Shown here: piece after piece, positions 26,639 to 32,120 of the stretch
How positions within the stretch are numbered: position 1 is the first letter of the stretch
Layout of the letters: each line of letters opens with the position of its first letter
Origin: Candidatus Omnitrophota bacterium
Lineage (GTDB): Bacteria; Omnitrophota; Gorgyraeia; Gygaellales; Profunditerraquicolaceae
Reading direction: 5' to 3'
Assembly (NCBI GenBank): GCA_026387335.1
Contig: JAPLLX010000003.1
Span: 74,230 to 138,229, forward strand
DNA: 64,000 nt
Position numbers and translations under genes: made by a program
Notes under the pieces: generated by a model
What the model saw: the letters and a program-made list of their open reading frames with translations, nothing else
Told to the model about the DNA's origin: nothing
Databases searched by the model: none

Positions 26639-27340
26639 TTAATTCTCCTTTCGCACATTTGATTTTAATAGATCCGGCCGTCTTGCTCGCGTCCTTTTTA
26701 ACGCTTCTTTATTTCTCCAGGCTTCTATTTTCTTATGATCCCCGGAAAGAAGGACTTCCGGCACGCTCATCTTACGAAAATTCGCTGGCCGGGTATAATG
26801 CGGATGTTCTAATAGATTACCCTCAAATGACTCAAAATTCAAGGAATTTTTATCCCCTAAGACCCCCGGAAGAAGCCGCACAACACTATCCACCAAAACC
26901 ATAGCCGCCAGTTCTCCTCCGGTAAGCACATAATCGCCTATGGATATCTCCTCATCCACCAATTTTTCCCGTACTCTCTCATCCACTCCCTCATAATGCC
27001 CGCAGATAAGAATTATGTGCTTCTCTTTTGAAATATTTTTAGCGATTTTTTGGGTAAGTTTTTCGCCTTGAGGGCATAATAAAATTACTTTTGACTTTTT
27101 ACCTTTTATTTTTGATTTGATATGCTCAACCGCCTTAAAAATCGGCTCCGGCTGCATAAGCATACCTGAACCGCCTCCAAAAGGCCGGTCATCAACCTTA
27201 CGGTGCTTATCCGAGGTATAATCCCTTAAATCATGAATATGAAATTTAACCTTACCTTTATCTTGAGCCCGCAGCATAATGGATTCATTCAGCACAGGCG
27301 CAAACATTTTAGGAAATATAGTAATTATATCTATCCTCAT
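26639..27340 (-). CDS. trmD: tRNA (guanine37-N1)-methyltransferase
   Basis: 233 aa SPOUT knot MTase. '[13 protein letters not shown]' and '[14 protein letters not shown]' are TrmD signatures. Confidence 0.95.
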
Positions 27341-28473
27341 ATTGCCTGTCCTTTGGCGTATTCCAGCAAAAATTCTTTTTTAAACTCGCTGAATTGATTA
27401 TCTTTAATCGCTTCCCGTATCTTACGGGCCAAATCTAAAAAGAAATATACGTTATGTAAAGAAAGCAAGGTCAAACCCAACATCTCCTGAGCGTTAAATA
27501 AGTGCCGCAGATAGGCCCGGCTAAAATTCCGGCAGCAATAGCAGCCACATTTTTCATCCAAAGCCTTAAAATCATCGGCAAATTGGGCGTTGCGGATGAT
27601 AATCTTCCCGCGGCTGGTAAACCCTGTCCCATTCCTGCCGTAACGGGTGGGAACAACGCAATCAAACATATCAATCCCCCGCTCCACCGCCTCAATTATA
27701 TCCGGCGGATAACCTATACCCATGGCATAGCGCGGTTTTTCAACGGGCAGAAAATTAGCTGTGTATTCTAATATATTATATATTAAATCGCTGGGTTCGC
27801 CAACTGAAACTCCGCCTATGCTAAAACCGTCAAAATCAATATCAATCAATTCTTTAGCGCATTCAGAACGCAGATCCTCATAAGTCGCTCCCTGCACAAT
27901 GCCGAATAACACCTGCTTCTTGGTCGGGCCATGTTTCTTATGCTCCTTAAAATGTTTATACGAACGCTTGGCCCAGCTGATTGTGCGTTTCATGGCGATT
28001 TCCGCGTGGTCCTTAGTACAAGGATAATGCACGCATTCATCCAACGGCATCATTATATCCGAACCTAAGTCTTGCTGAATATCAATTACGTCTTCAGGGG
28101 TCAGGAAATGCTTAAAACCGTCTATGTGCGACTGAAATTCAACTCCCTTGTCGCTTAACTTTCTTAGAAGCGCTAAACTAAAGACCTGATAACCGCCGCT
28201 ATCCGTAAGAATGGGTTTTTTCCAGGAGATAAACTTATGCAAGCCGCCGGCTTTCCGGATAATATCCATTCCCGGACGCAAGAATAAATGATAAGTATTA
28301 GAGAGCATGATTTCCGCGCCTGCCTCTTCCACATCCTTAGGATAAAGGCCCTTAATGGTAGCATGCGTCCCTACAGGCATAAAAGCCGGCGTATTAATTA
28401 CCCCATGCTCTGTAGTAATCCTGCCCAACCTGGCTTTGCTCTTCTTATCTTGCTGAATTAATTCAAACATCAT
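27337..28473 (-). CDS. tgt: Queuine tRNA-ribosyltransferase (tRNA-guanine transglycosylase, bacterial type)
   Basis: 378 aa. It has the catalytic 'DSGGYQ' and 'VPTRYGRNG' regions and the Zn site 'CGCYCC...H' (CxCxxC...H) diagnostic of canonical bacterial Tgt, not archaeosine or DpdA-type enzymes. Confidence 0.95.
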
Positions 28474-28540
28474 TAGTCATTGCGAGTCCGCCGTAGGCGG
28501 ACGAAGCAATCTCTGCGTTGTTATGCTACGTTTATCCTTT

Positions 28541-28673
28541 AAGGTCACAATTTGTGACCTTAAACAATACGCCTTGTTATCTAAAATCTTGAAGTCACAA
28601 TTTGTGACTTCAAACAAATACGCTTAGAGTATACCTTGTTACCTGGAATCTTGAAATCACAAATTGTGATTTC
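28541..28673. repeat. Three tandem degenerate units (about 50-62 bp each), each containing a 21-bp palindrome built on TCACAA-TTTGTGA, in the tgt 5'-flank and island boundary
   Basis: The palindromes are aaggtcacaatttgtgacctt (28541-28561), gaagtcacaatttgtgacttc (28591-28611) and gaaatcacaaattgtgatttc (28653-28673). Arm substitutions are compensatory (agg/cct, aag/ctt, aaa/ttt). Each is followed by an aaacaa(a)tacgc...ccttgtta...aatctt tail. Confidence 0.6.
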
Positions 28674-28736
28674 AAGTAATAAGCCCTGCTTAGAAACAAG
28701 TCAAGTCATACGCTATACAAATCCGAACCGTCCCCT

Positions 28737-29312
28737 TTATGTAAATTCAATTTCGTATTTCGCCTTAAATTTTTCAAACCAATCGAGAAGGTCTCTACAG
28801 AAATATGAAATGATTAAACCGAATTTTAGTTTAAATTTTGTAAACTTATGAGAACCCTGCGATCCAAAATTTTCTATATTTATATTAAGTAAATTTAGAA
28901 TGAAAGAATCCACTAAGACAGAAAACGTTAACATTTTTGCTCCTTTTTCCATAATCTCCCAATCACTTTTAATCGCCTTGTAATATTGGGCATACCGAAT
29001 TACTATAATATTATGTACACCCTTAAGACCCTCTTCTGAAATGTCTGGGTGCCGAGCAGGATTATATATTGCTTTATGCATACCATCTAAAACTATTTTA
29101 ATATTTTCTTCCCCAAGGTAAGCAAATATTCTTTGAAAACAATAAGTTAGAAGAAATACCCAAAGATAAAAAAGTTCCCATTCAATTCTTTTATCATCTT
29201 GCAATATCTTTTCTTCTTTTATGACTTCTCCCCAAGCTGATGATGAAAATTTACTTATCGCTTCTTTGCAAAATGTCTCTACAAATATTTCATAAGGTAT
29301 GGATTGTGACAT
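28737..29312 (-). CDS. Hypothetical protein (191 aa), distal gene of the A+T-rich 3-gene insert. Possible paralog of the 30329-30907 product
   Basis: The ORF is very A+T-rich with K/I/F/N/Y-rich codon usage, unlike the neighbours. The start lies 4 nt after the stop of the 307-aa ORF, indicating translational coupling. It has one long hydrophobic segment and the motif 'MHKAIYNPARHPD'. Confidence 0.5.
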   Translation of the reverse strand: MSQSIPYEIFVETFCKEAISKFSSSAWGEVIKEEKILQDDKRIEWELFYLWVFLLTYCFQRIFAYLGEENIKIVLDGMHKAIYNPARHPDISEEGLKGVHNIIVIRYAQYYKAIKSDWEIMEKGAKMLTFSVLVDSFILNLLNINIENFGSQGSHKFTKFKLKFGLIISYFCRDLLDWFEKFKAKYEIEFT

Positions 29313-30907: not shown

Positions 30908-30976
30908 ATGACACCGGCACGCTTAGCCGCGGATATTAATGTTAATTATGGATATTTTGCCGAAGGGTGTTGTGAA

Positions 30977-31105
30977 GCGCACAATTAGAAAATTTTCGGC
31001 AAAAGAGTGCGAGGAATTACGACGAACGGAGGAATTCCTTTCTAGCGTAAGTCCTTCCGGGAGTGAGTCGTAAACCGAAGCACTCGGCGAAAATTTTCGT
31101 GCGCG
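30977..31105. repeat. About 130 bp structured element. Imperfect 25-34 bp inverted repeats flank a hairpin-rich core, and each arm contains a perfect GAAAATTTTC palindrome
   Basis: The left arm is gcgcacaattagaaaattttcggcaaaagagtgcg (30977-31011). The right arm is cgaagcactcggcgaaaattttcgtgcgcg (31076-31105), the reverse complement with small indels. The inner core has nested stems (ttacgac/gtcgtaa) and a GGAATTCC palindrome. It lies 23 bp downstream of the queA stop. Confidence 0.5.
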
Positions 31106-31127
31106 AACAATACCCGCAGGCGAAATA

Positions 31128-32120
31128 TCAAAGAATCAACATTGCGTCGCCGTAGCTGTAAAACCTGTATTTCTTATCCACTGCTTCCTGATACGCCTTT
31201 TTCATCAACTGCTCTCCGCCAAAAGCGCATACCAGCATAAAAAGCGTGGTCTTGGGCAAATGAAAATTTGTCAGCAAGCAATTGGCTAATTTAAATTTAT
31301 AACCCGGATAAATGAATAAATTTGTTTGGCCTTCTTTTATGCCAGTAGCATAAACCTCTAAAGCTCTTAATGAAGTTGTGCCTACGGGAATTATGCGGGA
31401 GTTATTCTTGCGCGCTTCTTCTATTTTTTCTTGCGCGGGTTTAGGAACCTGAAAGGATTCCGGTTCCATTTCATGCTCGGTAATATTATCTGAAGTGACC
31501 GGCTTAAACGTGCCTAAGCCGACATGTAAAGTCAAATACGCGGTTTTTACTCCCTCATCTTCTATTTGCTTAAGCAGCTCATTAGTAAAATGCAGTCCGG
31601 CGGTAGGAGAAGCTATCGCGCCCTCTTTATTCGCATAAACTGTTTGATAATATTCTTTATCTAAATCTTCCGGCTCTCTTCTGATGTAAGGAGGAAGCGG
31701 AACCTGGCCGAATTCATAAATTTTATCCGCGTCTTTTAGCTTAAAAGAAATCTCCCGGCGGTTAGTTACTGCTCCCTCAATCTTATCTTTTCCGAAAAAT
31801 ATCTTCTCGCCTATTTTGGTGCGGCTGGGTTGGATCAACGCTTCAAAAGTAGAGCCGCTTCTGCGCTTAGTCAATAAAATCTCAACCTTGCCTCCGGTAG
31901 CCTTATGCCCGATTAAACGGCAGGTAAGCACCTTGGTATCATTTAAAACCAGAAGGTCGTCTTTTTTTAAATATTTGGCGATATCCTTAAAAAGGCAATG
32001 CTCAATTTCTGAGTTTGAGCGGTTGACAACCATAAGCTTGGCTTCCACTCTATCCTCTAGAGGATATTGGGCGATTAATTCTTTGGGCAGGTTATAGTCA
32101 AAATCAGAGAGTTTTAACAT
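31128..32120 (-). CDS. queA: S-adenosylmethionine:tRNA ribosyltransferase-isomerase
   Basis: 330 aa. The N-terminus 'MLKLSDFDYNLPKELIAQYP' and the overall length match QueA, which acts directly after Tgt in queuosine synthesis. Confidence 0.95.
   Translation of the reverse strand: MLKLSDFDYNLPKELIAQYPLEDRVEAKLMVVNRSNSEIEHCLFKDIAKYLKKDDLLVLNDTKVLTCRLIGHKATGGKVEILLTKRRSGSTFEALIQPSRTKIGEKIFFGKDKIEGAVTNRREISFKLKDADKIYEFGQVPLPPYIRREPEDLDKEYYQTVYANKEGAIASPTAGLHFTNELLKQIEDEGVKTAYLTLHVGLGTFKPVTSDNITEHEMEPESFQVPKPAQEKIEEARKNNSRIIPVGTTSLRALEVYATGIKEGQTNLFIYPGYKFKLANCLLTNFHLPKTTLFMLVCAFGGEQLMKKAYQEAVDKKYRFYSYGDAMLIL

Follow-up and report, generated by a model that had tools for sequence, protein, structure and literature searches.

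Autoregulatory operators may lie inside coding sequence, as is the case for lac O2 in lacZ and gal OI in galE. Repetitive extragenic palindromic (REP) elements occur as many dispersed copies, are accompanied by a RAYT (Y1 transposase-like) gene and have an imperfect hairpin with a conserved GTAG/CTAC tetranucleotide at its foot. The attC sites are imperfect palindromes of 57-141 nt with R''/L''-L'/R' boxes and extrahelical bases, and their cassettes are served by the IntI integrase; elements of the IS200/IS605 type are accompanied by a tnpA (Y1) gene, a tnpB gene or both, and are flanked by a left-end and a right-end hairpin that are distinct. At the protein level, the ORF6N, KilA-N, Bro-N and Rha proteins form a 'Bro network' that is found in phages and mobile elements and is characterized by domain swapping (PMC10111431). 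The present analysis concerns three tandem palindromes, P1, P2 and P3, located upstream of tgt, the queuine tRNA-ribosyltransferase gene, in a 64,000-nt stretch of DNA from a Candidatus Omnitrophota bacterium (contig JAPLLX010000003.1; the whole stretch analysed is hereafter called the window). As judged from sequence comparison, P1-P3 are quite probably solo non-coding members of a palindrome family that belongs to ORF6N genes, and would be the remnant of an ORF6N cassette once present at this site. In the literature searched, in Rfam and in the PDB, no conserved intragenic or upstream ORF6N palindrome is described; in the same literature, the palindrome core sequence appears in one paper, as a false CRISPR call.

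An earlier note on this DNA had placed three 21-bp palindromes at 28541-28561, 28591-28611 and 28653-28673, with a spacing of about 50-62 bp. These coordinates are correct, and all three palindromes extend to 27 nt. P1 (28538-28564, TTTAAGGTCACAATTTGTGACCTTAAA) forms 13/13 arm pairs and is of the 'LRSQFVTLN' type, P2 (28588-28614, CTTGAAGTCACAATTTGTGACTTCAAA) forms 12/13, the outermost pair alone failing, and is of the 'LKSQFVTS' type, and P3 (28650-28676, CTTGAAATCACAAATTGTGATTTCAAG) forms 13/13 and is of the 'LKSQIVISS' type. Their centres, at 28551, 28601 and 28663, are 50 and 62 nt apart. The differences among the arms (agg/cct, aag/ctt, aaa/ttt) are strictly complementary, as the note had observed, and all of them are compensated except for the outermost pair of P2. 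The proposal of a tandemly repeated unit also holds, the two spacers being homologous to each other: spacer 1 lies at 28565-28587 (CAATACGCCTTGTTATCTAAAAT), and spacer 2, at 28615-28649 (CAAATACGC[ttagagtatac]CTTGTTACCTGGAAT), is a diverged copy of it with a 12-nt insertion (direct-repeat family D2: 42 nt, 86%). The 13-nt core TCACAAWTTGTGA occurs exactly three times in the window, always within this cluster, and a scan of the window for 27-nt palindromes with at least 11/13 pairs returns P1-P3, two unrelated sites and nothing else. The palindromes are not coding: no two of them share a reading frame, and stop codons interrupt both strands. The 71-aa open reading frame (ORF) at 28636-28851 has no family match.

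The family to which these palindromes belong becomes apparent outside the window. When public genomes and viral contigs were scanned for ARRTCACAAWTTGTGAYYT, a procedure that selects for the palindrome itself, the genome matches fell mostly inside ORF6N-domain genes (PF10543, Pfam E = 1e-31 to 1e-37). Here the site corresponds to the peptide NL[RK]SQ[IF]VTS, between DFMFQLT and YLPYAFTEQG, with the coding copy encoding L[RK]SQ[IF]V[TI]S through the codons TTG AAG TCA CAA TTT GTG ACT TCA A. The element is a dyad of approximately 27 nt centred on W, with an inner core RTC-R-CAA-W-TTG-Y-GAY and outer arms that are variable yet complementary. Over 26-29 nt, each of P1-P3 coincides with palindromes from within ORF6N genes in distant phyla, either exactly or with the central base as the one difference. 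In ORF6N genes that share only 30-42% identity and encode another peptide at this point, the best palindrome still falls on that codon position, with its own sequence, as in gaactggtcgaaaAtttcgaccggttc and gaggttatcaaaaAatttgataacctc. Because these distant genes keep a palindrome at that position, it is a nucleic-acid-level hallmark of the ORF6N family.

A second, motif-independent sample of ORF6N genes was collected with peptide patterns lying outside the motif (FP[EAD][DK]F[MCT]FQ, EQG[VI]AMLS, [VI]MLD..), and provided 77 distinct palindrome sequences. These form on average 11.7 of 13 Watson-Crick arm pairs, compared with 6.5 (standard deviation 2.0) upon synonymous-codon resampling, and at least 12 pairs are reached by 64% of the genes but by only 0.45% of the synonymous resamples. 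At arm positions 2-13, 73-98% of the 77 sequences show a Watson-Crick pair, whereas in the control, where the partner column is slid along the alignment, pairing falls to 19-41% of cells. The alignment contains 106 doubly compensated cells versus 32.9 in shuffles, a count reached in 0/500 shuffles, and one-sided changes of a pair (G-U type) are rare. The amino acids follow the pairing as well: SQ.V is encoded by tcacaa/ttgtga, SQ.A by tcgcaa/ttgcga, FQ.G by ttccaa/ttggaa and CQ.G by tgccaa/ttggca, so that residue pairs covary with base pairs, and base three of the R/K codon has base two of the T/I codon as its pairing partner. The palindrome is selected for self-complementarity in ORF6N genes. 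The argument of the earlier note, that the covariation in P1-P3 speaks for a hairpin or cruciform and against ordinary protein half-sites, is considerably strengthened by these family-wide data.

The palindrome is also present in non-coding DNA. Within about 130 nt upstream of many ORF6N start codons, one to five tandem copies are found, and a single upstream array often combines different core alleles (L310, L109, L105, L264, L283, L192). In the non-coding copies the inner core RTCRCAAWTTGYGAY is kept, and the outer arms are free but complementary (ccgg/ccgg, ctgg/ccag, ggta/tacc, gcgg/ccgc). An alignment of 59 such copies contains 143 doubly changed cells versus 36.8 in shuffles, with one-side-only changes of the G-U type again rare, and among 70 non-coding copies, each with at least 10/13 pairs, the mismatches (G.T 20 vs A.C 27) reveal no wobble preference on the sense strand. 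The lack of wobble preference and the rarity of G-U-type changes fit a DNA-level symmetry better than an RNA helix. In the coding copies, the mismatches are A.C 51 versus G.T 19; an antisense-hairpin preference was considered on this basis and rejected, the bias being explained by codon constraints and gone in the non-coding copies. In approximately 17/120 genome loci the palindrome is solo, with 800 nt around it free of ORF6N sequence, and lies in a short intergenic region. Groups of related viral contigs (among them L134, L163, L170, L174, L237 and L137/L173) likewise contain ORF6N-type palindromes, one or two each, that belong to no ORF6N gene, for instance ..RSQIVILKIRSQIATLK.. in short ORFs, and solo copies are thus found in phage genomes too.

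The closest counterparts of the window array are provided by related Omnitrophota loci in which an ORF6N gene lies beside tgt, in the queA-tgt gap. In L412/L413 the order is tgt, 138 bp, a divergent ORF6N gene, a convergent gene and queA, with one palindrome 32 nt from the tgt start codon and one inside ORF6N. Spacer 1 and P2 (window 28566-28616) match L413 747-796 over 51 nt with 90% identity (BLAST, E = 6e-13). P2 is identical to the upstream palindrome of L412/L413, cttgaagtcacaaTttgtgacttcaaa, and spacer 1 aligns to the 21-nt L413 flank AATACGCCTTTCTTATGAAAT between the tgt start and that palindrome (P = 0.0007 vs shuffles). P1 with its flank (window 28537-28571) matches L413 1067-1101 over 35 nt with 94% identity; this L413 segment consists of the internal ORF6N palindrome and the 7-nt coding flank caatacg (N-N-T codons), and the sole arm difference between P1 and the internal palindrome is compensated (aaga/tctt vs aagg/cctt). 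In L404, whose Tgt is 87% identical, ORF6N is divergent from tgt, and upstream of it stand one P1-type and one P2-type palindrome, with the same short flanks as in the window: P1 matches the start-proximal one, and P2 shares the left flank AAAATC with the start-distal one. P3, in turn, equals the internal coding palindrome of the L404 ORF6N gene at 27/27 positions (centre 4967). L405 also has an ORF6N gene in this gap. In the window itself, P1-P3 lie neither within an ORF6N gene nor in the region of about 130 nt upstream of one, and over the 64 kb no ORF6N coding sequence is detected by hidden Markov model (HMM) or six-frame regular expression beyond the palindrome-encoded peptide. Since the window is without the gene that is met at the syntenic site in L412/L413, L404 and L405, P1-P3 are assigned to the solo, or remnant, members of the family.

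Taking these matches into account, an ORF6N cassette would have adjoined tgt in the queA-tgt gap and its coding sequence would since have been lost, leaving the palindromes and a few flanking nucleotides, and the unit of palindrome and spacer would then have been duplicated locally. It is the lack of ORF6N coding sequence in the window that leads us to describe the array as a collapsed, locally duplicated remnant. In intact cassettes, the palindromes most likely act as cis-acting DNA sites, in the form of a hairpin or cruciform or at least of a strictly symmetric duplex, which the ORF6N protein probably recognizes for autoregulation. The window array is most likely a relic without dedicated function, although side effects are possible, either by binding of ORF6N paralogues encoded elsewhere in the genome or by stable hairpins in transcripts that read from the insert into tgt. 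Correction of one arm from the other by template switching may help to keep the palindromes perfect, but cannot explain their family-wide conservation.

Several observations weigh against the remnant interpretation. With respect to tgt, the P1-like and P2-like units follow each other in one order in the window and in the opposite order in L404. Once the palindromes and 5-21 nt of their flanks are set aside, no significant remnant of ORF6N coding or promoter sequence is detected, either by an HMM search with all filters off or by shuffle-controlled Smith-Waterman alignments to L404, L405 and L413 (P = 0.39-0.91). P1-P3 have kept essentially perfect arms despite a divergence of about 17% in the spacers, which in a pure relic requires a recent origin, continued selection or templated arm-to-arm correction. 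Finally, the non-coding alignment was built from copies with at least 11/13 pairs, so that the percentage paired is inflated, but the diversity of pair types is not. Two further likenesses, one of the flank after P3 to the PYAFTEQG codons and the other of a TTAGAA-N18-TATACA segment to a promoter, were non-significant versus shuffles and are not claimed.

The genomic setting of the array is that of a mosaic insert. On the minus strand, the order is a SpoIID-like gene, queA (31128-32120), a 192-aa ORF, a DUF5677 gene, a 191-aa ORF, the array, a GC-rich hairpin, and the run tgt, trmD, rplS and rnhB. The insert, at approximately 28.7-30.9 kb, has about 31% GC compared with about 44% in its flanks, in agreement with the earlier placement of the array at the tgt-proximal edge. 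The first gene of the run, tgt (27337-28473, minus strand; PF01702, E = 1e-161), has the array 65-203 nt upstream of its start codon, and the best homologues of its product are Omnitrophota proteins with 85-91% identity. Between P1 and this start codon lies the GC-rich hairpin repeat (28478-28511, CATTGCGAG..GAAGCAATC, CATTGCGAGTCCGCCGTAGGCGGACGAAGCAATC), which is unrelated to P1-P3, is not at this spot in L413 and has a 78%-similar copy at 225-282 of an unrelated element, L410; it has the appearance of a small dispersed repeat of Omnitrophota. On the other side of the array, the 191-aa ORF (28737-29312, minus strand; function unassigned, NCBI locus NTW18_03020 of the metagenome-assembled genome, MAG) is the last gene of the insert, with its stop codon 60 nt from P3. 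It has no family match, and is 90% identical in DNA to the gene at 2850-3433 of L410, an element that holds Fic and helix-turn-helix genes and a tyrosine integrase. Because this homology stops at the ORF ends, an exchange of cassettes the size of a gene is suggested, and the 191-aa ORF appears to have been acquired separately. It shows no relationship to the 192-aa ORF. Annotation of the insert genes yields one Pfam match (DUF5677, E = 2e-14), one weak, unrelated NCBIfam match and no PADLOC (defence-system) match. No transposase, RAYT or integrase is annotated in or next to the insert by Pfam, NCBIfam and PADLOC, and the window contains no tRNA or tmRNA attachment site.

The cargo of the queA-tgt gap differs in every relative, or the gap is empty (L001-L004, L404-L407, L412). 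Examples of this cargo are CBAH with a radical SAM gene, Fic with flavodoxin, DUF1330, Mrr with pilin-like genes and ORF6N, and FRG with ORF6N and DsrE. On this comparison of gene contents, the gap is a cargo hotspot in this Omnitrophota lineage. At the opposite edge of the insert, between the queA stop codon and the 192-aa ORF, a long inverted-repeat region occupies 30921-31127. It is 80% conserved in L412 (6356-6634) and L413 (2229-2507), and consequently belongs to the queA flank and not to the cargo. Upstream of tgt, palindromes of the P1-P3 kind are absent in L001-L004 and L406. A single degenerate copy is observed in L407 (5135-5161, tttgaagttacaaAttgttactttaag, 10/13), in the queA-tgt gap about 850 nt upstream of tgt, where there is no ORF6N gene; this copy may be an older relic.

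Among the four identities that the earlier note had offered for the array, iterated operators for a dimeric regulator come nearest, with the qualification that the palindromes are tied to ORF6N cassettes, the gene being lost here. As in the autoregulatory operators, the ORF6N dyads cluster at the 5' end of their own gene with a copy in the coding region, and the ORF6N protein is predicted to bind DNA and to contain a coiled coil. Unlike in those systems, the internal site lies in the coding sequence of the protein's own DNA-binding domain, at the same codon position in every subfamily sampled, and the arrays mix several alleles, whose varying positions stay complementary, which is not required of ordinary operators. 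It is unlikely that the window array has been co-opted as a set of working sites for an ORF6N-family protein encoded elsewhere, either to control tgt-trmD-rplS-rnhB or to insulate this operon from the insert. Such a role would suit the short distance to the tgt start codon, the homologous palindrome in the divergent tgt/ORF6N region of L412/L413 and the persistence of perfect arms while the spacers diverged. Omnitrophota genomes often have ORF6N genes, sometimes two per MAG (L038, L064), and solo palindromes recur in short intergenic regions of other phyla. It fits poorly with the six close relatives whose tgt has no such palindrome, save for the degenerate copy in L407, and the tgt strand of the array region gave no promoter-like site. 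The same six orthologous loci led to the rejection of a conserved 5' leader of the tgt operon, another of the four identities. A wider role of the hairpins in transcripts, as a tgt 5' leader or as a 3' stabilizer or partial terminator of the insert mRNA, is very unlikely. The flanking genes are all on the minus strand, and read-through transcripts would therefore hold the hairpins. Folding, a check that the earlier note had proposed, gives z = -8.0 for the whole 267-nt intergenic region as RNA, far better than shuffles, and as single-stranded DNA each palindrome forms a 12-bp stem with a 3-nt loop at about -10 kcal/mol (z = -5.7 to -6.8). The absence of a U-tract, which the note had asserted for either strand, agrees with a terminator scan in which P1 and P3 are not flagged, but does not extend fully to P2, which on the minus (tgt) strand is followed by ATTTTAGATA (AUUUUAG) and in a simple scan is weakly terminator-like, with 4/12 stem pairs GC. 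Against a function in RNA stand the lack of a sense-strand G-U preference and the rarity of one-side-only changes in the non-coding copies, the absence of the palindromes upstream of tgt in relatives, and the occurrence of the same palindrome in either position relative to genes. In addition, Rfam returns nothing at the gathering threshold in the window or in 20 ORF6N loci, the sub-threshold matches being chance hairpins of the microRNA type.

A mobile-element end or recombination site, comparable to IS200/IS605 subterminal hairpins, REP/RAYT repeats or attC-like sites for the entry of hotspot cassettes, would be consistent with an array that borders a low-GC mosaic insert in a gap of changing cargo. 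It would also accommodate a conserved core with an outer stem of which only the structure is kept, as in the sites of HUH enzymes or integron integrases, and the mosaicism of closely related ORF6N genes around the palindrome. This explanation is nevertheless extremely unlikely. The IS200/IS605 hairpins resemble P1-P3 in that DNA structure outweighs sequence, but P1-P3 have no TnpA/TnpB gene and no left and right ends, and are perfect, tandem and homologous to an intragenic ORF6N element; the corresponding proposal of the note fails on the lack of a transposase or integrase in the insert and on the different repeat at the other edge, where no second array is found. With REP elements, P1-P3 share the character of short extragenic palindromes that form DNA hairpins, often in small tandem intergenic clusters, with the stem kept by compensatory change. 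In contrast to REP elements, which the note had also suggested, the stems are perfect and without a GTAG/CTAC head, the window holds this single cluster and no further copies, no RAYT is near, and the ORF6N palindrome is tied to ORF6N genes, one copy being coding. The attC sites are likewise structure-read, sequence-variable hairpins at cassette borders in a cargo hotspot, whereas P1-P3 are perfect, 27 nt long and devoid of extrahelical bases and of R''/R' core sites. The other hotspot cassettes of the relatives have no palindromes, and no integrase is present in the hotspot in the window or in L001-L004, L404-L407 and L412. ORF6N genes, moreover, have no constant neighbour, such as a nuclease or recombinase partner (146 Pfam families among 137 neighbouring genes). 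A CRISPR array was rejected, P1-P3 differing from each other and the two spacers being homologous to each other. The remaining explanation dispenses with selection on structure: the arms would be complementary through intra-strand template-switch correction, so that the covariation is a mutational by-product and the sites are functionless. Arms of 13 nt with a loop of 1-3 nt have the geometry of known template-switch correction, and the local copy-paste of palindrome-centred segments of 35-40 nt, with rearranged spacers, is suggestive of such events. This account carries little probability, as it cannot explain why, in all phyla and subfamilies sampled, the palindrome of ORF6N genes occupies the same codon position in the face of synonymous drift, nor why a conserved inner core lies beside variable outer arms.

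Regarding the proteins that would read these sites, the Bro network is the cognate gene family, with ORF6N members scattered singly in genomes, plasmids and phages. The ORF6N structural model consists of a winged-helix-like domain followed by long helices (predicted local distance difference test, pLDDT, 73), and the palindrome-encoded residues fall at a helix end and in a low-confidence loop. Fold searches with the model return weak matches only, to the Ski/Dachshund winged helix and to RacA-DNA, and no PDB entry is related to ORF6N by sequence. Several ORF6N genes contain the palindrome as tandem copies in frame within the coding sequence (L019, with three copies 42 nt apart at 316-400, and L050, L036, L021, L031, L080 and L101), where they lengthen a loop of the protein. 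In alignment A4 (P0126, P0140, P0152, P0153, P0229), ORF6N proteins that are 80-86% identical overall have exchanged a segment with the palindrome at its centre (..YKNLKSQFVISSWGGRRHS.. vs ..AQSLRSQFVILNNTGSKRGKHLKFM..), so that the palindrome marks a mosaic, recombination-prone segment. Two Legionella plasmids (L414, L415) have ORF6N divergent from a tyrosine recombinase, with a different 26-nt palindrome, gggtagataaggt|acgttatctaccc, in the shared upstream region. The Segatella copri plasmids L408 (NZ_CP152354.1, 2955 bp) and L409 (NZ_CP152486.1, 4140 bp) have only a replication initiator and ORF6N annotated, and these two-gene plasmids hint at a plasmid-maintenance or copy-control role for ORF6N.

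A more far-reaching interpretation can be formulated, in which the palindrome is a structure-selected hairpin or cruciform 'self' site that is read by ORF6N, lies in a part of the gene encoding a permissive loop, is copied locally (as upstream arrays and in-frame tandem copies) and can outlive its gene, with solo arrays serving as landing pads that place housekeeping operons, in this case tgt-trmD-rplS-rnhB, under the trans control of ORF6N regulators of mobile elements. Taken as a whole this is distinctly unlikely; if true, it would reveal an unrecognized cis-trans pair of very wide distribution, with base pairing in the nucleic acid imposing paired replacements on the amino acids of a protein family.

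On the remnant interpretation, the locus itself would be an ordinary relic, and what is new is a cis-acting palindrome that is tied to a putative regulator gene, lies within its coding sequence, is maintained through pairing and tends to be copied locally. An unexplained repeat thereby acquires a readable history, in which an ORF6N cassette would have stood beside tgt, lost its gene and left its cis-elements behind. ORF6N is a very large uncharacterized family, with more than 8000 homologues in bacterial genomes, plasmids and phages, including plasmids of 3-4 kb with only Rep and ORF6N. In every member examined the pairing of the palindrome is conserved against synonymous drift, forcing paired amino-acid replacements. 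Copies also spread to the promoter region. This provides a clear natural case in which nucleic-acid structure constrains protein sequence, and gives the family a concrete putative cis-element and probable binding site. In practical terms, solo palindromes of the ORF6N type may serve as a marker of sites where an ORF6N cassette is, or formerly was, present.

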